Part shown: positions 25,823 to 50,370 of the stretch, piece after piece | Numbering within the stretch: position 1 is the stretch's first letter | Layout of the letters: each line of letters opens with the position of its first letter | NCBI GenBank assembly: GCA_027490985.1 | Contig: JAIXXC010000228.1 | Span: forward strand, 1-58,250 | DNA: 58,250 nt | Reading direction: 5' to 3' | From: Verrucomicrobiales bacterium | Lineage (GTDB): Bacteria > Verrucomicrobiota > Verrucomicrobiia > Limisphaerales > UBA9464 | Made by a program: the position numbers and the translations under genes | Notes under the pieces: model-generated | Told to the model about the DNA's origin: nothing | Database searches by the model: none | What the model saw: only the letters and a program-made list of their open reading frames with translations

Positions 25823-27364
25823 ATGTCCCTCTCGCTGCCCGGTTTCCGCCGATCCGCCTTGGCCACGATCCTCACGACAGCCTCCACCCTGGGGCTCGGA
25901 TGGGGCCTCACCGCCTGGGGAGCCGACCCCAAACCCAGCCCCAAACCTTCGGGCGCCCAGGTCGACGGCGCTTTCCACAAGGTGATCCTCGACACCGACC
26001 GCGATCAGGACGGCGATGGCACCCCCGAGGACACCGTGGTCAACCCCATGGAGATCGCCGTGGCCCCGGACGGCCGGGTCTTCTACATCGAACGGGCCGG
26101 CCTGTTGAAGGTGTGGAACCCCACGACGCGCTCCTCGTCCGTCGCCGCGACTCTCAAGGTGTTCACCGAACTCGAGGACGGCCTGCTGGGAATCACGCTC
26201 GATCCGAAATTTCCCAAGAATCCGTGGGTCTACCTGTTCTATTCGGATCCCCAGACCCGAACCAACGACACCCAGCACAAGACCGGCGACAATCGGGTCT
26301 CCCGCTTCACCTTCCGCGACGGAACCCTCGACCTGGCCAGCGAGAAGATCCTGATGCGCATCCCCACCCAGCGCGATCAATGCTGTCATTCGGCCGGATC
26401 CCTGGCCTTCGACGCCGCCGGCAACCTGTATGCCGCCACGGGGGACAACACCCACCCCGGCGAATCCGACGGCTACAGCCCCATCGATGAACGCCCCGGA
26501 CGCGAGCCTTGGAACGCCCAGAAATCGGCCGCCAACGCCAACGACCTGCGTGGCAAGATCCTGCGCATCCATCCCGAGGCCGACGGCACCGCCACGATCC
26601 CGGCCGGCAATCTCTTTGCGCCCGGCACGCCCAAGACCCGGCCCGAGATCTATGTCATGGGCAACCGCAACCCCTTCCGCATCAGCGTCGACAAGGCCAC
26701 CGGACACCTCTACTGGGGCGAGGTAGGCCCGGATGCCGGCGGCCCCAACGACAAACGCGGTCCCGCCGGCTTCGACGAGATCAATCAGGCCCGCGCGGCG
26801 GGCAATTTCGGATGGCCGTTCTTCGCCGGAGACAATCGGCCCTACCACCGCTACGACTTCGAGACGCGCCAACACGGGGAACCCTGGGACCCGGCCCACC
26901 CGATCAACCCCTCGCGCTTGAACACCGGACCGTCGGAACTGCCGCCGGCCCAACCCGCCTTCATCTGGTATCCCTACGGAGCCTCCACCCGTTTCCCGGA
27001 GGTGCGCAACGGAGGCCGGACCGCGTGTGCAGGCCCTGTTTACCGCTACGACGCCGCGTTGTCGTCGGCGCACAAACTGCCCAAGGAATTCGACCGGACG
27101 CTCTTCATCTACGAATGGTCCCGCAACTGGATCCTCGCCGTGCACCTCGACGAGGATCACAAGATCGCCAAAACCCCGGATGGCAAGCTCCGAATGGAGC
27201 GCTTTTGCCCCAACATGACCTTCATGCGCCCCATGGACCTCGAGATCGGAGCCGACGGCTGCCTGTATGTGCTCGAAAACGGCACCGCATGGGTCGGAAA
27301 CAAGGACACGCAACTCGTCCGGATCGAGCACCACCCGGTGGCCGGACAGCCCGGGCAACCGTGA
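25823..27364 (+). CDS. exported PQQ-dependent sugar dehydrogenase-like (GSDH) beta-propeller protein
   Basis: EDGLLGITLDPKF, CCHSAGSLAFD, DLRGKILRI, EIYVMGNRNPFR, DEINQ, GNFGWP. Confidence 0.85.
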   Translation: MSLSLPGFRRSALATILTTASTLGLGWGLTAWGADPKPSPKPSGAQVDGAFHKVILDTDRDQDGDGTPEDTVVNPMEIAVAPDGRVFYIERAGLLKVWNPTTRSSSVAATLKVFTELEDGLLGITLDPKFPKNPWVYLFYSDPQTRTNDTQHKTGDNRVSRFTFRDGTLDLASEKILMRIPTQRDQCCHSAGSLAFDAAGNLYAATGDNTHPGESDGYSPIDERPGREPWNAQKSAANANDLRGKILRIHPEADGTATIPAGNLFAPGTPKTRPEIYVMGNRNPFRISVDKATGHLYWGEVGPDAGGPNDKRGPAGFDEINQARAAGNFGWPFFAGDNRPYHRYDFETRQHGEPWDPAHPINPSRLNTGPSELPPAQPAFIWYPYGASTRFPEVRNGGRTACAGPVYRYDAALSSAHKLPKEFDRTLFIYEWSRNWILAVHLDEDHKIAKTPDGKLRMERFCPNMTFMRPMDLEIGADGCLYVLENGTAWVGNKDTQLVRIEHHPVAGQPGQP

Positions 27365-42779: not shown

Positions 42780-42848
42780 TCCCATTCGCCCTCCGTTCAC
42801 TCCCGTTCCGGCTTGCGGCCGACCGAGCGACGGGCGGAGGCTCGTCCC

Positions 42849-44741
42849 ATGGAGTTCGCCCAACGCCTGTGGATCACCCTCCTCTCGGTCGGCTTCTGCT
42901 TCGCCTCGCTCACCACCCTCGGAGACACCCCGGCCGATCCCAACGCCGCGTGGTTGGCCGAGCACTACACCAAATATGAGCACCGCATCCCCATGCGCGA
43001 CGGCGTGCGACTCTTCACCCGCGTGTATGTGCCCAAAGACGAGTCCGAGAGCTACCCGATCCTGCTGACGCGAACGCCCTACACGGTGAAACCGTACGGG
43101 GTGGACAACTACAACGACCCCGATGGCACCTTCGCCGCACTGGCCAAGGACCGGTTCATCATGGTGTCGCAGGATGTCCGCGGCCGCTTCGGATCGGAGG
43201 GGAAGTTTGTGCACATGCGCCCCTTCAACCCCAACAAGGAGCTCAAAGATACCGACGAAAGCACCGATGCCTGGGACACCATCGATTGGCTGGTCAAGAA
43301 CACGCCCAACAACAACGGCAAGGTGGGCATGTTCGGGATCTCGTACCCGGGCTTCTACACGTCGATGGGCATGATCGATTCCCATCCCGCCCTGAAGGCG
43401 GCCAGCCCGCAGGCCCCGATCACCGATTGGTTCATCGGCGACGACATCCACCACAACGGCGCGTTCTTCCTGTCGCAGAATTTCGGCTTCTTCTGGTGGT
43501 TCGAATTGCCCAGCGAGGATCCGCTGCGCGACGCCGGCCGGAAGTTCGTGTTCAACAACGCCGACGGCTACGACTTCTTCCTGCGGATGGGGTCGCTCGG
43601 GAACTCAGAAACCCTGCACTTCAAGCAGCGCGTGCCCATCTGGACCGAGTTCCTCGATCACCCCAACTACGACGCCTACTGGCAGGCCCGCAACATCCGC
43701 CCGCACCTCAAGAACGTGCGCTGCGCGGTGCTCACCGTCGGCGGGTGGTTCGACGGAGAAGATCTCTTCGGAGCCCTCGAGACCTACCGATGGACCGAGA
43801 AGCTCAATCCGGGGATCACCAACCTGCTGGTGATGGGTCCCTGGACCCATGGGCAATGGAGCCGCGGGCCCGGCGATCGGGTGGGTGACGTCGATTTCCA
43901 CGTGAAGACCGGGGAGCATTACCGCGAGAAGATCGAGCTGCCGTTCTTCCGCCAGTTCCTCAAGGGCGACACCAACCGCTTCCAACCCGAGGCCCAGATG
44001 TTCGAGACGGGCACCCATCGCTGGCGGCGCTTTGACGCCTGGCCGCCGGCACGGGCGACCTCGCAAACCCTGTATTTCCACCCCGGAGGCCGCCTCGTGG
44101 CCGGCACCCCGCCCCCGGCGACCGACACCGGCTACGACGAATTCCCCAGCGATCCGGCCAAACCCGTCCCCTTTTCGCAGGAGGTCACCACCGACTACCC
44201 GCGCGGCTACCCGACCCACGACCAGCGATTCGCGGCTTCGCGCCCGGATGTCCTGGTTTATGAAACCGAGCCGCTCGAAGAAGACCTGACCCTCGCCGGC
44301 CCCCTCGAGGCCACGCTGCAGGTGGCCACCACCGGCACCGACGCCGACTGGGTGGTGAAGATCGTGGACGTGTACCCGCCCGACTTCCCCGATCCGCAAC
44401 CCAACCCGGCCCACCTGCGGATGGGCGGTTACCAGCAGCTCATCCGCGGCGATGTGATGCGCAGCCGTTTCCGCAAGAGCTTCGAACACCCGGAACCCCT
44501 GAGGCCCGGTGAGGTGACCCCCGTGGCCTTCACCCTCCCCGACGTGCTCCACACCTTCCGTCGCGGTCACCGCGTGCAAATCCAGGTCCAAAGCAGCTGG
44601 TTCCCGCTGGTGGACCGCAATCCGCAGATCTTCGTGCCCAACATCGCCCGGGCCCAGGCCGCCGACTTCCGCAAAGCCCTCCATCAAGTCCACCGCACAC
44701 CGAAGGCCCCCTCGGCCGTGACCGTGCGAGTCTTGAAGTGA
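42849..44741 (+). CDS. CocE/NonD family hydrolase (alpha-amino acid ester hydrolase-like), exported
   Basis: IPMRDGVRL, RTPY, QDVRGRFGSEG, nucleophile GISYPGF, GGWFDGED, GPWTHG, PepX_C-like C-terminus. Confidence 0.93.
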   Translation: MEFAQRLWITLLSVGFCFASLTTLGDTPADPNAAWLAEHYTKYEHRIPMRDGVRLFTRVYVPKDESESYPILLTRTPYTVKPYGVDNYNDPDGTFAALAKDRFIMVSQDVRGRFGSEGKFVHMRPFNPNKELKDTDESTDAWDTIDWLVKNTPNNNGKVGMFGISYPGFYTSMGMIDSHPALKAASPQAPITDWFIGDDIHHNGAFFLSQNFGFFWWFELPSEDPLRDAGRKFVFNNADGYDFFLRMGSLGNSETLHFKQRVPIWTEFLDHPNYDAYWQARNIRPHLKNVRCAVLTVGGWFDGEDLFGALETYRWTEKLNPGITNLLVMGPWTHGQWSRGPGDRVGDVDFHVKTGEHYREKIELPFFRQFLKGDTNRFQPEAQMFETGTHRWRRFDAWPPARATSQTLYFHPGGRLVAGTPPPATDTGYDEFPSDPAKPVPFSQEVTTDYPRGYPTHDQRFAASRPDVLVYETEPLEEDLTLAGPLEATLQVATTGTDADWVVKIVDVYPPDFPDPQPNPAHLRMGGYQQLIRGDVMRSRFRKSFEHPEPLRPGEVTPVAFTLPDVLHTFRRGHRVQIQVQSSWFPLVDRNPQIFVPNIARAQAADFRKALHQVHRTPKAPSAVTVRVLK

Positions 44742-44742
44742 G

Positions 44743-44899
44743 GCACGAGCATTGCGGGCGACGGCCCCATCCCCCCGCCCCGCCCCATAAGCGGGATCGG
44801 GCCATAGCCCGCAACGGATCGTAAGCACCCTTCCCCCCGCGCGCGCAGCGCGAATCATCCTTCGACGCACGAGCATTGCGGGCGACGGCCCGATCCCGC
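44743..44899. repeat. three REP-like units in alternating orientation
   Basis: GCACGAGCATTGCGGGCGACGGCCC(C/G)ATCCC at 44743 and 44867 (30/31 identical); inverted copy at 44791-44814 (22/24 to the third copy). Confidence 0.8.
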
Positions 44900-44985
44900 G
44901 CCCCCCCACCGCCCCCAAGCGGACGAGTTCGGGCTTGGCTCCCGGGCGGGAAGGGCGCTCAATTTGCGGACTCCCTCCCGATTGC

Positions 44986-46344
44986 ATGAGCACCGACTCG
45001 CCCCAGTTCCTGTCCCGCGAGGCCACCGTGGCCGGGCCAGGATTCTCGCGGTGGTTGGTGCCACCGGCGGCGATCGCCGTGCACATGTGCATCGGCGAGG
45101 TCTACGGTTTCAGCGTCTTCAATGAACCCCTGAGCCGACTCCTCGGCGCCACCGCACACGACCCGGCTCGGGATTGGACCATTCCGCAGATCGGTTGGAT
45201 CTACTCGATCGCCTTGGTCCTGCTCGGACTTTCCGCCGCGGTGTTCGGCAAATGGGTCGAGCGCAGCGGCCCCCGCAAAGTGATGGTCACGAGCGCCACC
45301 TGCTTCTGTTCCGGACTGGTGTTGTCGGGCATCGGAGTGCAGCAGCACTGGCTGTGGCTGGTGTACCTGGGATACGGCGTGATCGGCGGCATCGGACTCG
45401 GACTGGGCTACATCGCCCCGGTGTCCACCCTGATGAAATGGTTTCCGGATCGGCCCGGCATGGCCACGGGCATGGCCATCATGGGCTTCGGCGGAGGCGC
45501 ATTGATCGGGGCCCCTCTCGGCGTGACCCTGATGGCGCATTTCAAGACGGCCACCGATCCGGGCGTCGCGTCCACGTTCTTCGCCATGGCCGGCCTGTAT
45601 GCCGTCTGGATGCTCTTCGGAGCCTGGCTCGTCCGGGTGCCCGCGGCCGATTGGAAGCCAGCGGGTTGGCAACCCGCGGCGGCCGGATCCAAGGCCGGAC
45701 CCGCCCAGGCGGTGTCCGTGGATCAGGCCTGGAAGACCCCCCAATTCTGGCTCCTGTGGATCGTCTTGTGCATGAACGTCAGCGCGGGCATCGGTGTGCT
45801 CGGACAGGCCTCGCTCATGTGCCAAGACCTCTTCGGTGTCAGCGCCGCCGTCGGAGGCGGATTCGCCGGACTGCTGTCGCTCTTCAACATGGGAGGCCGC
45901 TTCCTCTGGTCGTCGGTGTCCGACCTCACCGGCCGGCGCACGGTGTATGCGATCTACTTCCTCCTGGGAGCCCTGCTCTACGCACTGGTGCCCTGGACCC
46001 AGAAGATCGGCAGCCGCGCCCTGTTCGTCGCCGTGACCGCGGTGATCATCTCCATGTATGGCGGTGGTTTCGCCACCATCCCGGCCTACTTGCGCGATCT
46101 CTTCGGAACCCATCAGGTCGGGGCCATCCATGGCCGACTGATCACGGCCTGGTCGCTGGCGGCCATCGTCGGCCCAAATCTCATCAACTACATCTCCGCC
46201 GCGAAGAAGAAGGCCGGCGTGCCCGCGGCCGAAGCCTACAACAGCACCCTGTACCTGATGTGCGGCCTGCTGCTGGTGGGGCTGATCGCCAACCTGCTGG
46301 TGCGCCCGGTGCATCCGCGACACCACCTGGCAACGGCCCGATAG
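44986..46344 (+). CDS. OFA family (oxalate/formate/lactate-type) MFS transporter
   Basis: RWLVPPAAIAVHMCIG..YGFSVF, LGYIAPVSTLMKWFPDRPGMATGMAIMGFGGGA, SMYGGGFATIPAYL, GAIHGRLITAWS. Confidence 0.92.
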   Translation: MSTDSPQFLSREATVAGPGFSRWLVPPAAIAVHMCIGEVYGFSVFNEPLSRLLGATAHDPARDWTIPQIGWIYSIALVLLGLSAAVFGKWVERSGPRKVMVTSATCFCSGLVLSGIGVQQHWLWLVYLGYGVIGGIGLGLGYIAPVSTLMKWFPDRPGMATGMAIMGFGGGALIGAPLGVTLMAHFKTATDPGVASTFFAMAGLYAVWMLFGAWLVRVPAADWKPAGWQPAAAGSKAGPAQAVSVDQAWKTPQFWLLWIVLCMNVSAGIGVLGQASLMCQDLFGVSAAVGGGFAGLLSLFNMGGRFLWSSVSDLTGRRTVYAIYFLLGALLYALVPWTQKIGSRALFVAVTAVIISMYGGGFATIPAYLRDLFGTHQVGAIHGRLITAWSLAAIVGPNLINYISAAKKKAGVPAAEAYNSTLYLMCGLLLVGLIANLLVRPVHPRHHLATAR

Positions 46345-46362
46345 CCTCCCCCCCCGCGCACC

Positions 46363-46530
46363 ATGCAACGTCTCCTGCTCATCGCCGCCTGGATCCTGGT
46401 GCTGGCCCCTCTGTCCTGGGGGGTGGCCCGTTCGGTCCAGCGCTCGATGCCCCTCTTCACAGCCGACAAAGCCGCCGGCGCGCCGCTCCAGAATGGCTTG
46501 ACGACTCCGACCCAACCCACCAGACCCTGA
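46363..46530 (+). CDS. 55-aa single-TM protein, probable small partner of the OFA MFS transporter (not in the supplied ORF track)
   Basis: MQRLLLIAAWILVLAPLSWGVARSVQRSMPLF...; AW-x5-PL-x-WGV pattern; fills the gap between the MFS stop and the next ATG. Confidence 0.7.
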   Translation: MQRLLLIAAWILVLAPLSWGVARSVQRSMPLFTADKAAGAPLQNGLTTPTQPTRP

Positions 46531-46561
46531 CTTTTTTCCAGAAACCACCCCATCCCCACCG

Positions 46562-47917
46562 ATGAAAACACTGACTCCCCTGCTCCTGGCCTCCGCGCTG
46601 TCGCTGACCGCCGTGGCCGCCGAACCCAAACACAACACCGCCCTCCCCGGCGGCAAACTGCCCAAGCCCGTCAAGGTGTCCCTCGTGAAGGTCGCCGGCG
46701 GCTTCGTCGATCCCGTGCGCGTCTCGCTGGCCCCGGGCGACAACAACCGCCTCTTCGTCTGCGAACGGACCGGCGTGGTGAAGCTCATCAAGAACGGCAA
46801 GGTCCAGGACAAGCCCTTCCTCGACATCCATGAGACGGTGGTCAGCTCCTTCCTCGAGCAGGGTCTCTACGACCTCGAGTTCCACCCGAAATTCGCCGAG
46901 AACGGCAAGTTCTACGTCCACTACTCCGACATGTGGTTCAATGGCGCCGGGTTCATCGTCGAGTACCAGGTCTCGAAGACCAACCCCGACAAGGCCGATC
47001 CGGAGTCGGCCCGGGTGGTCTTCCAAATGCCCCGCCCCTACGCCAACCACAACGGCGGCGAGATCGCCTTCGGACCGGATGGCTACCTGTACATCGGCAG
47101 CGGTGATGGCGGTTGGGAAGGCGACGTCCTGGGTGCCGGCCAAGACCTGAGCACCTGGCTGGCGAAGATCCTGCGCATCGACGTCAACCCCAGCCAACCC
47201 GACCGCGGCTATTCCATCCCCAAGGACAACCCCTTCATCACGCCAGGCTCTCAGATGAAGCTCTTCGGCGTGACCGAAGAGGCCTTCAACAAGATCCATC
47301 CCAACGCCAAGCCCGAGATCTGGAGCTACGGCCTGCGCAACCCGTGGAGCTTCCAGTTCGACCCCAAGACCGGCGACATGTACATCGCCGACATCGGCCA
47401 GAACCACTACGAGGAGGTCAATTTCGAGCCCCGCGGCAAAGCGGGCGTGAACTACGGCTGGAAGTTCATGTGCGGCACCCATCCGTTCCCCCTGCCGCTC
47501 GACGCCAGCGGCAAGCCCGATCTCGATGCGGTCAAGGACGCCCCGAAGGTGGGTGAGGCCCCGATTTGCGAATACAGCCATGTCGACCAGGGCAATTGCG
47601 TCATCGGCTTCGGCGTGTACCGCGGCACCAAATACGCCCAGATGGACGGCACCTACTTCTTCGGCGACTGGGGCTCCGGCAAGGTCTGGGGCACGGCCCG
47701 CGATGCCCAGGGCCAATGGCAGATGCAGGAATTGCTCAACACCAAGCTGATGTTCACCGGCGGCGGTCAGGGTTCCGATGGCACCCTCTACGTCACGGAC
47801 GCCAAGGCCAACTACGGTGGCCCGGCCGATCCGGCACAGAACGAGCGCGGTGCGGTGTGGATGCTGGTGCCTTCCGACAAGGTGCCCGCCGGCGCCGAAG
47901 TGGCCCCGGTGGAGTGA
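46562..47917 (+). CDS. exported PQQ-dependent sugar dehydrogenase-like (GSDH) beta-propeller protein
   Basis: signal peptide; EQGLYDLEFHPKF, NHNGGEIAFGPDGYLYIGSGDGG, KILRIDV, YGLRNPWSF, ADIGQN..EEVN, NYGW. Confidence 0.9.
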   Translation: MKTLTPLLLASALSLTAVAAEPKHNTALPGGKLPKPVKVSLVKVAGGFVDPVRVSLAPGDNNRLFVCERTGVVKLIKNGKVQDKPFLDIHETVVSSFLEQGLYDLEFHPKFAENGKFYVHYSDMWFNGAGFIVEYQVSKTNPDKADPESARVVFQMPRPYANHNGGEIAFGPDGYLYIGSGDGGWEGDVLGAGQDLSTWLAKILRIDVNPSQPDRGYSIPKDNPFITPGSQMKLFGVTEEAFNKIHPNAKPEIWSYGLRNPWSFQFDPKTGDMYIADIGQNHYEEVNFEPRGKAGVNYGWKFMCGTHPFPLPLDASGKPDLDAVKDAPKVGEAPICEYSHVDQGNCVIGFGVYRGTKYAQMDGTYFFGDWGSGKVWGTARDAQGQWQMQELLNTKLMFTGGGQGSDGTLYVTDAKANYGGPADPAQNERGAVWMLVPSDKVPAGAEVAPVE

Positions 47918-47964
47918 TCCATCGCCGCGGCAACCACCCGCGAACCCATCCCGATCTTCCGTCA

Positions 47965-48004
47965 CCCGGGGGCAAAGCTCAGGCTTGGCCCCCGGGCCTT
48001 TTTT
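47965..48004 (+). terminator. intrinsic terminator between the dehydrogenase and cupredoxin genes
   Basis: CCCGGGGGC-AAAGC-tcag-GCTTG-GCCCCCGGG followed by CCTTTTTT. Confidence 0.75.
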
Positions 48005-48035
48005 GGGGTCCACTGTCGAAAACCAACTGATCGCC

Positions 48036-48623
48036 ATGTTCCGGAATCTCGCCCTCGCCTGCGCCCTTGCCCTCAGTCCTCTGGTTTGGGCGGCCGACGC
48101 CCCCGCCGCCCCCGGACACGACCACGGTGCGCCTGCCGCTGACTCCAAGGCACCGGAACCCAAGGAATCGATGTTCCTGTCGGTGGACCCGAAGTCACCG
48201 AAGACCGCACGCCTCGTGGTGGTTTCGGCGTACAACGCGGTGAACTACGGCATGAACTTCAACGGCTTCGCCAAGGGCGGTGCGCGCTACACCATCCCAC
48301 AAGGCTGGACCGTGTCGGTGGTCTTCACCAACAACAGCCCGGTGCCCCACAGTGCGATCGTGGTGGAGAAGCCCGTGGTGAAAAAACTCCAGATGGGCGA
48401 ACCGGCCTTCAAGGGAGCCTCGACGCCCTACCCGGTGCGCGGCACCACGGGCAAGACGGGCGTGCCCTTCGAGTTCGTGGCCGATGAGGCCGGTGAATTC
48501 GCCATCGCCTGCGGCTTCCCCTCGCATTCGGCCAACGGCCACTGGATCGCCTTCGACGTCAGCGCCACGGCGACGGCCCCCAGCCTGCAGTTTGGCGACA
48601 AGCCCGCCTACGTGGCCCGCTGA
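48036..48623 (+). CDS. sulfocyanin (SoxE)-like exported cupredoxin
   Basis: signal peptide; NFNGF, IPQGWTVSVVFTN, PHS (first His ligand), C-x4-H-x4-H loop (CGFPSHSANGHW). Confidence 0.85.
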   Translation: MFRNLALACALALSPLVWAADAPAAPGHDHGAPAADSKAPEPKESMFLSVDPKSPKTARLVVVSAYNAVNYGMNFNGFAKGGARYTIPQGWTVSVVFTNNSPVPHSAIVVEKPVVKKLQMGEPAFKGASTPYPVRGTTGKTGVPFEFVADEAGEFAIACGFPSHSANGHWIAFDVSATATAPSLQFGDKPAYVAR

Positions 48624-49549
48624 TGCCCGTCCCGGTCCTGAACTCTCCCCGTCCCCTGGGCCACTCCGGGGTCTGCCTCGCCTTGGGGATGTTCGACGGG
48701 GTCCATCTCGGCCACCAGCATGTCATCCGGCAGGCCCGGATCGACGCGCGGGCGCGGGGCGACTCCACGGTCGTGGCCACCTTCGATCCGCACCCGTTGA
48801 CCGTGGTCCGGCCCGACAAGGCCCCCCGACTCCTGCAGTCGCTGCCCCAGCGCATCGCCACGCTGGAATCCCAGGGAGCCGACGCCGTGCTGGTGCTCCG
48901 CTTCGATGAGGCCCTGAGCCGGAAGAGCGGCGAGGCTTTCGTTCGCGATCTGGTCGCCGGCTTCGGTGGCCTGCGGAGCTTCACCGTGGGTCAGGGATTC
49001 CACTTCGGTCATGGCCGCAGTGGCAATGTCCCGCTCCTGAGAACCCTGGGCCGCGAACTGGGATTCTCGGTGAATGCCGTGGCGCCGATCCACATCGGGC
49101 CCGAGGTCGTGAGCAGCACCCGGGTCCGCTCCGCCTTGCGCGACGGCAAGCTCGGCCTTGTGGCCGAACTCCTCGGTCGGCCCTACAGCCTCGCCGGGAC
49201 GGTCGTCGAAGGCGACCGACTGGGACGATCTTTGGGATTCCCGACGGCCAACATCCCGGTCGAAGGGCTCGAATTGCCGCCCTTCGGCGTCTACGCCGCC
49301 CGGGCACGCCATGCCGGTGGCGAGTTTCCGGCGGCGGTCAATCTGGGTCTGCGCCCCACACTGCAGTCACCCCAACCGCAGCTACGGTTCGAGACCCATC
49401 TCATCGGATTCGAAGGCGATCTCTATGGCCACGACCTGACGGTGGAACTGGTGGGCTTCCTGCGTCCGGAGCGTCGATTCGCCCACCTCGACGCGCTGAA
49501 AACCCAGATCACCAAGGACATCGCGGCCGCACTGAAGGCCTTGAGCTGA
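48623..49549 (+). CDS. ribF: bifunctional riboflavin kinase/FAD synthetase
   Basis: GMFDGVHLGHQ, TFDPHP, FHFG, VSSTRVR, GRSLGFPTAN, ETHL, LRPERRF. Confidence 0.96.
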   Translation: MPVPVLNSPRPLGHSGVCLALGMFDGVHLGHQHVIRQARIDARARGDSTVVATFDPHPLTVVRPDKAPRLLQSLPQRIATLESQGADAVLVLRFDEALSRKSGEAFVRDLVAGFGGLRSFTVGQGFHFGHGRSGNVPLLRTLGRELGFSVNAVAPIHIGPEVVSSTRVRSALRDGKLGLVAELLGRPYSLAGTVVEGDRLGRSLGFPTANIPVEGLELPPFGVYAARARHAGGEFPAAVNLGLRPTLQSPQPQLRFETHLIGFEGDLYGHDLTVELVGFLRPERRFAHLDALKTQITKDIAAALKALS

Positions 49550-49662
49550 GTCGCCATCGAGTGATCACGAGGCCCCGATTCGGGACCGGCCTTCCTGAGG
49601 GTGCCCTTCAGGGATCTTTCCGGGATTGCTTCATGCCGCGACCCCGGTTCAGCGTCTGCCCC

Positions 49663-50370
49663 ATGAACTCCCGTTCGCTGGCGACTCTGTTGTTGTGCCT
49701 GTCCCTGGGTTCGGCGGCCCAGGGCGCCGATGTGGCCAAGTCCACCGCCTCGACCGGCCCGTGGATCGATCTCTTCGACGGCAAGTCCACCGCCGGTTGG
49801 CGCGGATTCGGCAAGCCCGCCTTCCCGGAACAGGGATGGATCGTGAAGGACGGCTGGCTCACCCATGTCGCCAAGGGAGGCGGCGGAGACATCATCACCG
49901 ATCGGCTCTTCACCGACTTCGAACTGCGGTTCGAATGGAAGATCTCCAACGGCGGGAACAGCGGCGTGAAGTACTTCATCGATGAGGCGCGCAAGGCGGC
50001 GATCGGCCATGAGTATCAGGTCATCGATGACGCCGCCCATCCCGATGCGAAGATCGGCCCCAAGCGACAGACGGCCGCGCTCTACGACGCGATTCCGGCC
50101 CGGTCGCCCCGCGTGAAGCCCGCCGGAGAGGTCAATGAATCGGCGATCATCGTCCGCGGAGATTCCGTGGAACACTGGCTCAATGGCGACTGCGTGCTGA
50201 AATACCAGATCGGCTCCCCGGAACTGGCCACCGCCAAGGCCGCCAGCAAGTTCAAGAACGAGGCCAAGTGGGGCACCCGCTTCCCGACCCCCATCCTGCT
50301 CCAAGATCACAGCGACGCGGTGGAGTTCCGGGACATCCGCATCCGTGAACTGAAACCTGCGAACCGATAG
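49663..50370 (+). CDS. DUF1080 (3-keto-disaccharide hydrolase-like) exported protein
   Basis: WIDLFDGKSTAGW, DFELRFEWK, GNSGVKY, EYQVIDD, VEHWLNG, LLQDH, FRDIRIREL. Confidence 0.9.
   Translation: MNSRSLATLLLCLSLGSAAQGADVAKSTASTGPWIDLFDGKSTAGWRGFGKPAFPEQGWIVKDGWLTHVAKGGGGDIITDRLFTDFELRFEWKISNGGNSGVKYFIDEARKAAIGHEYQVIDDAAHPDAKIGPKRQTAALYDAIPARSPRVKPAGEVNESAIIVRGDSVEHWLNGDCVLKYQIGSPELATAKAASKFKNEAKWGTRFPTPILLQDHSDAVEFRDIRIRELKPANR

Follow-up and report, generated by a model that had tools for sequence, protein, structure and literature searches.

Methylamine dehydrogenase with amicyanin and aromatic amine dehydrogenase with azurin are quinoprotein–cupredoxin pairs, in which a periplasmic quinoprotein gives single electrons to a blue copper protein encoded nearby. 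The axial ligand identity is a classic tuning knob of blue copper sites, and to our knowledge an axial His in cupredoxins is familiar from engineered proteins only. Six-bladed propeller dehydrogenases have acceptors of another kind. Bacterial propellers that use pyrroloquinoline quinone (PQQ) occur with an adjacent cytochrome c4/c551 (bioRxiv 10.64898/2026.07.10.737718), and the fungal enzyme CcPDH is an AA12–AA8 fusion (PMC6881789). Both follow the same logic: a propeller dehydrogenase outside the cytoplasm, periplasmic or extracellular, has an acceptor for single electrons of its own, either adjacent or fused. Here we describe a four-gene cassette at positions 44986–48623 of a 58,250-nucleotide stretch of Verrucomicrobiales DNA (the window; positions 1 to 58,250 of the forward strand of contig JAIXXC010000228.1, assembly GCA_027490985.1) that encodes a transporter of the major facilitator superfamily (MFS), its small subunit, a secreted six-bladed propeller and a secreted cupredoxin.

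The cassette is of a known kind, given the quinoprotein–cupredoxin pairs and the six-bladed PQQ propellers with adjacent cytochromes. Methylamine and aromatic amine dehydrogenases use tryptophan tryptophylquinone (TTQ), another fold and cupredoxins with a classical axial Met, unlike the pair in the window. Compared with the PQQ propeller/cytochrome systems and CcPDH, the acceptor here is a cupredoxin and not a haem protein; the preprint that describes the bacterial PQQ propellers (bioRxiv 10.64898/2026.07.10.737718) uses the word 'cupredoxin' 0 times in its main text. In the accessible parts of the literature searched, no description was found of this combination of proteins, of the axial-His copper site or of the altered cofactor pocket. 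We propose, with a probability of about 0.5, that the cassette comprises a periplasmic quinoprotein-type dehydrogenase, an unusual cupredoxin dedicated to accepting its electrons, and a system that takes up the acid product. It is self-contained and a real variant of known periplasmic oxidation modules.

Results

Conservation of the gene linkage

The four genes are co-oriented and separated by gaps of 18, 31 and 118 bp. A preliminary description of the sequence had read them as a periplasmic oxidation module. Its open reading frame (ORF) coordinates agree with ours, its three quoted motifs (HYSDMWFNG and GDGGWEGD in the propeller, ANGHW in the cupredoxin) are all present, and the N-termini of the propeller and cupredoxin (MKTLTPLLLASALSLTAVA before AEP and MFRNLALACALALSPLVWA before ADA, respectively) read, judged by eye, as Sec signal peptides; it too had given both proteins a signal peptide.

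The linkage was followed in a set of loci obtained by scanning one genome per species, which gave 159 stretches encoding relatives of the propeller. The best 80 of these (62–99% identity) were used, and their neighbours were sought by tblastn with the proteins of the window. Loci with at least 800 bp downstream of the propeller gene were evaluable for the cupredoxin (n = 76) and those with at least 1800 bp upstream for the MFS transporter (n = 69). A cupredoxin gene lies within 700 bp downstream of the propeller gene, on the same strand, in 67 of the 76 evaluable loci, and an MFS gene lies within 700 bp of it in 60 of 69. The nine loci that have no cupredoxin (L072, L075–L079 and L081–L083) carry the labels Verrucomicrobiaceae, Verrucomicrobiales, Prosthecobacter or Verrucomicrobia; in L079, a gene with an SGL domain adjoins the propeller gene. 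A tblastn counterpart of the small subunit was found between the MFS and propeller genes in 35/80 loci, each with a propeller of at least 76% identity. Distant loci encode an MFS protein of ~560 residues with two insertions, whose gene abuts the propeller gene and is not accompanied by a small-subunit gene. Gene order varies: the MFS gene is divergent in L037 and L038, convergent in L097, and follows the cupredoxin gene in L060 (propeller–cupredoxin–MFS).

The other neighbours change. The downstream gene ribF and the remaining neighbours in the window travel with the cassette in close relatives only. The flanking ORFs of loci with a propeller below 72% identity were clustered all-against-all, and the other recurring families fall within or overlap the three genes, except for one family (5 such loci) that is scattered in position and strand. 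Two further families that seemed to be exceptions (10 and 9 such loci) fall inside the MFS span.

A survey anchored on the cupredoxin gave the same picture. Among 200 other genomes of the order the cupredoxin is present in nine, spread over at least five families, and each of the nine has a propeller gene (62–88% identity) immediately 5' of it in the same orientation. Among 300 other genomes sampled across the phylum none was found, so that neighbourhoods were counted in the order sample. The cassette is thus rare and patchy, occurring in 10/201 genomes of the order and 1/301 of the phylum sample. The genome of the window has one copy each of the cupredoxin and of this MFS transporter. It also has seven further GSDH-like matches, and the cassette propeller alone adjoins the single cupredoxin. 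The linkage of propeller, cupredoxin and MFS transporter is therefore well beyond chance, and the association made in the preliminary description, which unlinked genes elsewhere were to refute, withstood the comparison.

Of the seven other GSDH-like matches, one lies in the window at 26039–26830 (25% identity to the cassette propeller over 295 residues) and six sit on other contigs. The cupredoxin matches of L098 and L102, both from the order sample, each contain one in-frame TGA. In two Verrucomicrobiaceae loci, L091 (9477–14193) and L092 (9305–14134), an axial-His cupredoxin gene is followed first by a gene for a protein of 224–229 residues without a Pfam match. Genes for cytochrome c assembly, ResB-like and CcsA, come next.

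Fold, active site and fused relatives of the propeller

The propeller gene (46562–47917, forward strand) encodes a secreted six-bladed GSDH/HHIP-like protein of 451 residues, a putative quinoprotein dehydrogenase that matches PF07995 at 9e-37 (127.5 bits, threshold 25). Its AlphaFold2 model has a predicted local distance difference test score (pLDDT) of 92. A Foldseek search with this model returned HHIP as the top hit (1.6e-27), followed by the PQQ sugar dehydrogenases 2ism, 3das (PQQ-bound) and 2g8s (Escherichia coli Asd). HHIP is also the nearest solved protein by sequence (1.8e-35). The fold matches include 9m58, in which a GSDH-like propeller and a Cu/Zn superoxide dismutase are joined; AA12 structures match much more weakly (~1e-9 to 1e-10). 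At E ≤ 0.001 this very large subfamily comprises 34,285 cluster representatives.

The window protein shares the six-bladed GSDH propeller and a signal peptide with YliI/Asd (2g8s), the soluble glucose dehydrogenase of Acinetobacter calcoaceticus (1c9u) and the Streptomyces coelicolor enzyme (3das). The catalytic His, an Arg-Asn pair and an EE..NYGW segment are likewise common to it and the soluble PQQ aldose and glucose dehydrogenases. It differs from these enzymes in having extra loops, in lacking the C-terminal Arg pair, in standing nearer to HHIP and in having genes for a dedicated cupredoxin and an MFS protein beside its own. Its identity to YliI is 29% over 268 residues. In that alignment the propeller segments ANHNGG and GLRNPW pair with NHFGG and GIRNPQ of YliI, and His144 and Arg240-Asn241 (mature numbering) are near-invariant in 53 sequences. 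In the CcPDH structure the catalytic His and the Arg/Asn contact the quinone oxygens of PQQ (PMC6881789). Arg44, His321 and Arg335, also in mature numbering and near-invariant, are further candidate pocket residues.

We also surveyed fused relatives. Forty long proteins were picked from the 150 best 50%-cluster representatives and scanned with Pfam; this selection favours multi-domain proteins, so that the following counts are examples and not frequencies. Six of the 40 carry cytochrome c domains and four a cupredoxin domain above the Pfam cut-off, with a fifth (P0125) under it. One relative (P0188) is fused to an SMP-30/gluconolactonase domain. The fused cupredoxin domains have an ordinary C...H...M site; in P0132 the propeller is flanked at each end by a Met-axial cupredoxin domain. 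Because relatives are joined to cytochrome c, cupredoxin and gluconolactonase domains, the fusions are our strongest argument and support, by analogy, a view of the subfamily as redox enzymes that would feed one-electron carriers and whose product can be a lactone. The cytochrome c fusions, which occur in close relatives of the window propeller, parallel the PQQ propeller/cytochrome systems. A search from the other side, for longer fused cupredoxins, returned one 691-residue protein of sulfatase and SoxE domains and no propeller fusion, which is weak evidence.

An axial His in the cupredoxin

The cupredoxin gene (48036–48623, forward strand) encodes a secreted rusticyanin/sulfocyanin-like protein of 195 residues with the pattern His-Ser...Cys-x4-His-x4-His. 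It matches the SoxE profile PF06525 at 2.1e-14 (53.7 bits, threshold 21) and scores 41.4 bits, far under the cut-off of 168.4, against the sulfocyanin equivalog TIGR03094. The model has a pLDDT of 86.4, and its top fold match is rusticyanin, with modest TM-scores of ~0.5.

The copper ligands of rusticyanin are His85, Cys138, His143 and Met148 (PMC13741234). In the alignment, PVPHS falls on His85-Ser86 and CGFPSHSANGH on Cys138-x4-His143-x4-Met148, so that H86, C140 and H145 of the window protein correspond to the equatorial type 1 ligands H85, C138 and H143. His150 occupies the position of Met148, and the axial Met of a type 1 copper site is therefore replaced by His. The preliminary description had called this a His-axial cupredoxin, and His150 proved invariant in 51 homologues (47–98% identity), together with H86, S87, C140, H145, G149, W151 and an NYGMNF segment. 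The axial His is also present in all distinct locus cupredoxins aligned; the residue after it is Trp, or Arg in an Akkermansiaceae-type clade. Cupredoxin fold, His-Ser, Cys-x4-His, the x4 spacing and the SoxE domain are shared with rusticyanin and sulfocyanin, whereas the invariant His stands in place of the axial Met, with Trp (or, in that clade, Arg) as the next residue. In further contrast to those proteins, the window protein belongs to a neutrophilic freshwater bacterium, and nothing connects it with oxidase genes or with the oxidation of iron. No description of a natural single-domain axial-His cupredoxin was found in the accessible parts of the literature searched, which does not prove that there is none.

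The N-terminal tail of the window protein contains GHDHG. An H-x(0-3)-H motif occurs in 44 of 62 distinct cupredoxin N-terminal stretches, including three (L036, L049 and L068) where it lies in the signal peptide or an upstream ORF extension, and 13 Akkermansiaceae-type cupredoxins have CC (RCC or KCC) in the N-terminus. These His and Cys motifs look like a second metal-binding site. Some distant cupredoxin homologues (L056 and L058) start with MKRRHFLSA, which resembles a twin-arginine signal; the signal of the window protein is Sec-like. When the mature propeller and the cupredoxin domain were co-folded, without control runs, the score was 0.00 (mark 0.32), which speaks neither for nor against binding.

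The transporter and its small subunit

The MFS gene (44986–46344, forward strand) encodes an SfMCT/OFA-type carboxylate transporter of 452 residues; the longest ORF opens at 44935, and the ATG of the gene is 17 codons further in. The protein matches PF07690 at 1.8e-41 and scores just above the cut-off of the 'L-lactate MFS transporter' equivalog NF049980 (326.7 against 320 bits). It was originally placed among OFA-family carriers of small carboxylates. The carboxylate part of that assignment is consistent with the binding residues described below. The scores fall far under the oxalate/formate cut-offs (TIGR00890, 162.5 against 374.85 bits; TIGR04259, 110 against 335).

The closest solved relative is SfMCT (6g9x, 3.6e-30), with OxlT next. 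SfMCT is the L-lactate/H+ symporter of Syntrophobacter fumaroxidans, in which Y119, N276, R280, Y331 and F335 bind the carboxylate and hydroxyl of L-lactate (6g9x; PMC6573034). These five of the nine ligand contacts are identical in the window protein, and the other four (L28, L145, F359 and C362) are changed to V, F, I and W. Since the carboxylate- and hydroxyl-binding residues are kept, the substrate is very probably an alpha-hydroxy monocarboxylate. SfMCT-type binding motifs are also visible in the distant ~560-residue forms.

Eighteen base pairs 3' of the MFS gene, a small ORF (46363–46530, forward strand) encodes 55 residues with one hydrophobic helix. It matches NF047966, 'MFS transporter small subunit', at 36.5 bits (cut-off 24), and the two proteins are accordingly one known kind of two-part transporter. 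The separate subunit and the four altered pocket residues distinguish the window transporter from SfMCT, as do the two insertions in the forms encoded by distant cassettes.

The spacer hairpin and transcription

The 118-bp gap between the propeller and cupredoxin genes contains an intrinsic-terminator-like element (47965–48004, forward strand). A strong GC-rich hairpin (47965–47996, stem of 9+4 bp) is followed by a run of six T (47999–48004). Hairpins of -15 kcal/mol or stronger, ending no more than 4 nt from a stretch of four or more T, were found in 32/68 propeller-to-cupredoxin spacers and in 1/63 MFS-to-propeller spacers. Judged by the first nine stem bases there are 14 distinct stem starts, and the stem sequence varies by lineage; the structure is conserved and the sequence is not. 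In the group of 79% identity the hairpin is absent.

Contigs of four river metatranscriptome libraries together cover all four cassette genes. One 619-nt RNA contig from a variant strain (47733–48349) spans the end of the propeller gene, the hairpin and the start of the cupredoxin gene, and two span the cupredoxin–ribF junction. The small subunit–propeller junction is bridged by none of the RNA contigs listed, and contig depth over the propeller gene exceeds that over the adjoining genes. Such depth cannot rank genes, and we conclude nothing from either observation.

Host and flanking sequence

The host assembly is a metagenome-assembled genome (MAG) of 3.49 Mb in 349 contigs, 90.5% complete; the closest relatives in public collections are Verrucomicrobiota MAGs from lakes and rivers. 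The cupredoxin stop and the start of ribF (48623–49549, bifunctional riboflavin kinase/FAD synthetase) overlap in TGATG at 48621–48625, and this pairing is confined to close relatives with a propeller identity of at least 96%. On either side, the genes for a CocE/NonD S15 hydrolase (42813–44741) and for a secreted DUF1080/3-keto-disaccharide hydrolase family protein (49561–50370) accompany the cassette in close relatives only.

Before the MFS gene lies a direct repeat of 47 nt (44740–44786 and 44864–44910, 85% identical) with an exact core of 25 nt, and the same spacer holds a 24-nt inverted repeat. We rejected the core as an operator: genome-wide it occurs at the cassette locus only, and in the closest relative, L004, it is single-copy, which indicates a local duplication. 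An Rfam scan of 44000–49700 (E ≤ 0.1) gave zero matches and a sigma-70 promoter scan 0 sites.

Discussion

In the mechanism that we infer, the secreted propeller would act as a quinoprotein-type dehydrogenase. The cofactor in its non-canonical pocket would most likely be PQQ, picked up from the surroundings. The enzyme would convert an aldose-like hemiacetal into a lactone, and opening of the lactone would yield an alpha-hydroxy carboxylic acid. The two electrons would pass singly to the secreted cupredoxin and then to the respiratory chain, and the invariant His as fourth ligand in place of Met is expected to lower the potential of the copper site. The proton-coupled SfMCT-like transporter and its small subunit would import the acid. 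As a partial terminator or a 3' stabiliser, the hairpin with its T-run would probably set the propeller:cupredoxin expression ratio; equally possibly, it gives the cupredoxin a transcription unit of its own.

Several observations weigh against this mechanism. The nearest solved match of the propeller in both sequence and fold is HHIP, a binding protein rather than an enzyme. The C-terminal Arg pair for the PQQ carboxylates is not found in the propeller, where, by alignment only, LMFTGG stands opposite QRIRDV of YliI; the subfamily consensus has no Arg at that site and no conserved Lys at GDWGSGK, and the fused relatives likewise lack the pair. The preliminary description had suggested a search for pqq genes elsewhere in the genome. 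In the 90.5% complete MAG, pqqC gave 0 matches, the best pqqE match reached 41.5 bits against a cut-off of 381, and no convincing PqqU was found (tblastn with E. coli PqqU gives a weak 241-residue match, 1.2e-4). Five further genomes with the cassette, including two closed ones, likewise yielded neither pqqC nor pqqE. The pqqC search does work, since it recovers the gene above cut-off in 5/301 genomes of the phylum, all of one family and none with the cupredoxin. Pocket residues bulkier than those of SfMCT (F168 and the Trp) disfavour a hexonate-sized substrate of the transporter. The cupredoxin gene is unlinked from the propeller gene in four of five Verrucomicrobiaceae genomes. Two of these have it next to a gene for an ECF (extracytoplasmic function) sigma factor, and in the other two it precedes an unassigned gene and ResB/CcsA; the propeller neighbours also differ among these genomes. 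Such unlinked cupredoxins are more readily explained as general carriers than as dedicated partners. The terminator-like hairpin speaks against simple co-transcription, the RNA libraries may hold DNA, and their contigs reveal neither transcript ends nor levels. It is doubtful that the cassette is one operon.

Set against the features that favour it, the original proposal is upheld in part. The propeller has kept the catalytic His and the Arg-Asn pair of a PQQ-type enzyme and lacks the C-terminal Arg pair. A redox pairing with the cupredoxin is favoured by the fusions of relatives to cytochrome c and cupredoxin domains; the four genomes with an unlinked cupredoxin speak against a dedicated partner. 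Transcription as a single unit has one RNA contig across the hairpin on its side, and the hairpin itself against it. AA12 enzymes hold PQQ with a different set of arginines (PMC6881789), and for that reason a non-canonical PQQ pocket in the propeller is possible. PQQ use is unproven, and the evidence for it from sequence is mixed.

The missing Arg pair and the failure to find pqqC, pqqE or PqqU raise the question of whether PQQ is involved at all. Propeller and cupredoxin could form a redox pair in which the propeller works with another cofactor, or with a metal centre of its conserved His and Arg residues, on a non-sugar substrate such as a small hydroxy acid or aldehyde that the MFS protein moves. 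The restriction of pqqC to 5/301 phylum genomes of one family, 0 of them with the cupredoxin, would fit this account, as would the kinship to HHIP and the lactate-sized transporter. We nevertheless consider it unlikely, as the His and the Arg-Asn pair that touch the PQQ quinone oxygens are near-invariant, this fold has no other known cofactor, many PQQ users scavenge the cofactor instead of synthesising it (PMC12124388, which describes scavenging by non-producers as common), and the AA12 enzymes too bind PQQ through different arginines (PMC6881789). A broader and still tentative possibility, to which we give less weight than to the proposed module, is that the cassette represents a new type of redox pair. 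It would unite an HHIP-like propeller oxidoreductase that binds a quinone or other cofactor without the canonical Arg anchors, the first natural single-domain His2Cys plus axial-His cupredoxin, with a metal-capturing tail, and a two-component MFS transporter that takes up the acid product.

The genes might also have no joint function, being co-inherited or part of a mobile block, with the cupredoxin as a general periplasmic carrier and the MFS protein as an unrelated lactate importer. The terminator-like element in 32/68 propeller–cupredoxin spacers, the four Verrucomicrobiaceae genomes with an unlinked cupredoxin, its translational coupling to ribF in the window, and the lack of a bridge between small subunit and propeller among the RNA contigs listed all point that way. 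The linkage nevertheless holds at propeller identities as low as 62% and in at least three gene orders while other neighbours change, the genes co-occur despite a patchy distribution (10/201 and 1/301 genomes), and only the cassette propeller, of all GSDH-like matches in the window's genome (seven others), stands beside the cupredoxin, which leaves this account quite improbable. More improbable still is a copper-handling module, in which the cupredoxin-like protein, given its His- or Cys-rich tail and four N/S ligands, would act as a periplasmic copper-resistance protein of the CopI type, to which we presume a likeness, and the propeller and MFS protein would serve copper redox or chelator traffic. 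The N-terminal H-x(0-3)-H motifs (44/62 stretches, three of these in a signal peptide or ORF extension), the CC of 13 Akkermansiaceae-type N-termini, a His-Cys-His-His site in place of the classical type 1 set and the propeller–superoxide dismutase fusion 9m58 among the fold matches would suit such a role. Genes for P-type ATPases, CusCBA and multicopper oxidases are however not conserved near the cassette, the cytochrome c and lactonase fusions of propeller relatives point to substrate oxidation, and the MFS protein has kept its monocarboxylate site.

The proposed dehydrogenase–cupredoxin module, if true, would add a copper acceptor to the haem acceptors of six-bladed quinoprotein dehydrogenases. 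A conserved family of natural axial-His cupredoxins would be a ready-made test case for axial-ligand tuning, and a very large propeller subfamily has a cofactor pocket unlike the textbook one. For the organisms themselves, the cassette suggests that abundant, uncultured Verrucomicrobia of lakes and rivers, which do not synthesise PQQ, may have periplasmic oxidation together with acid uptake among their traits.

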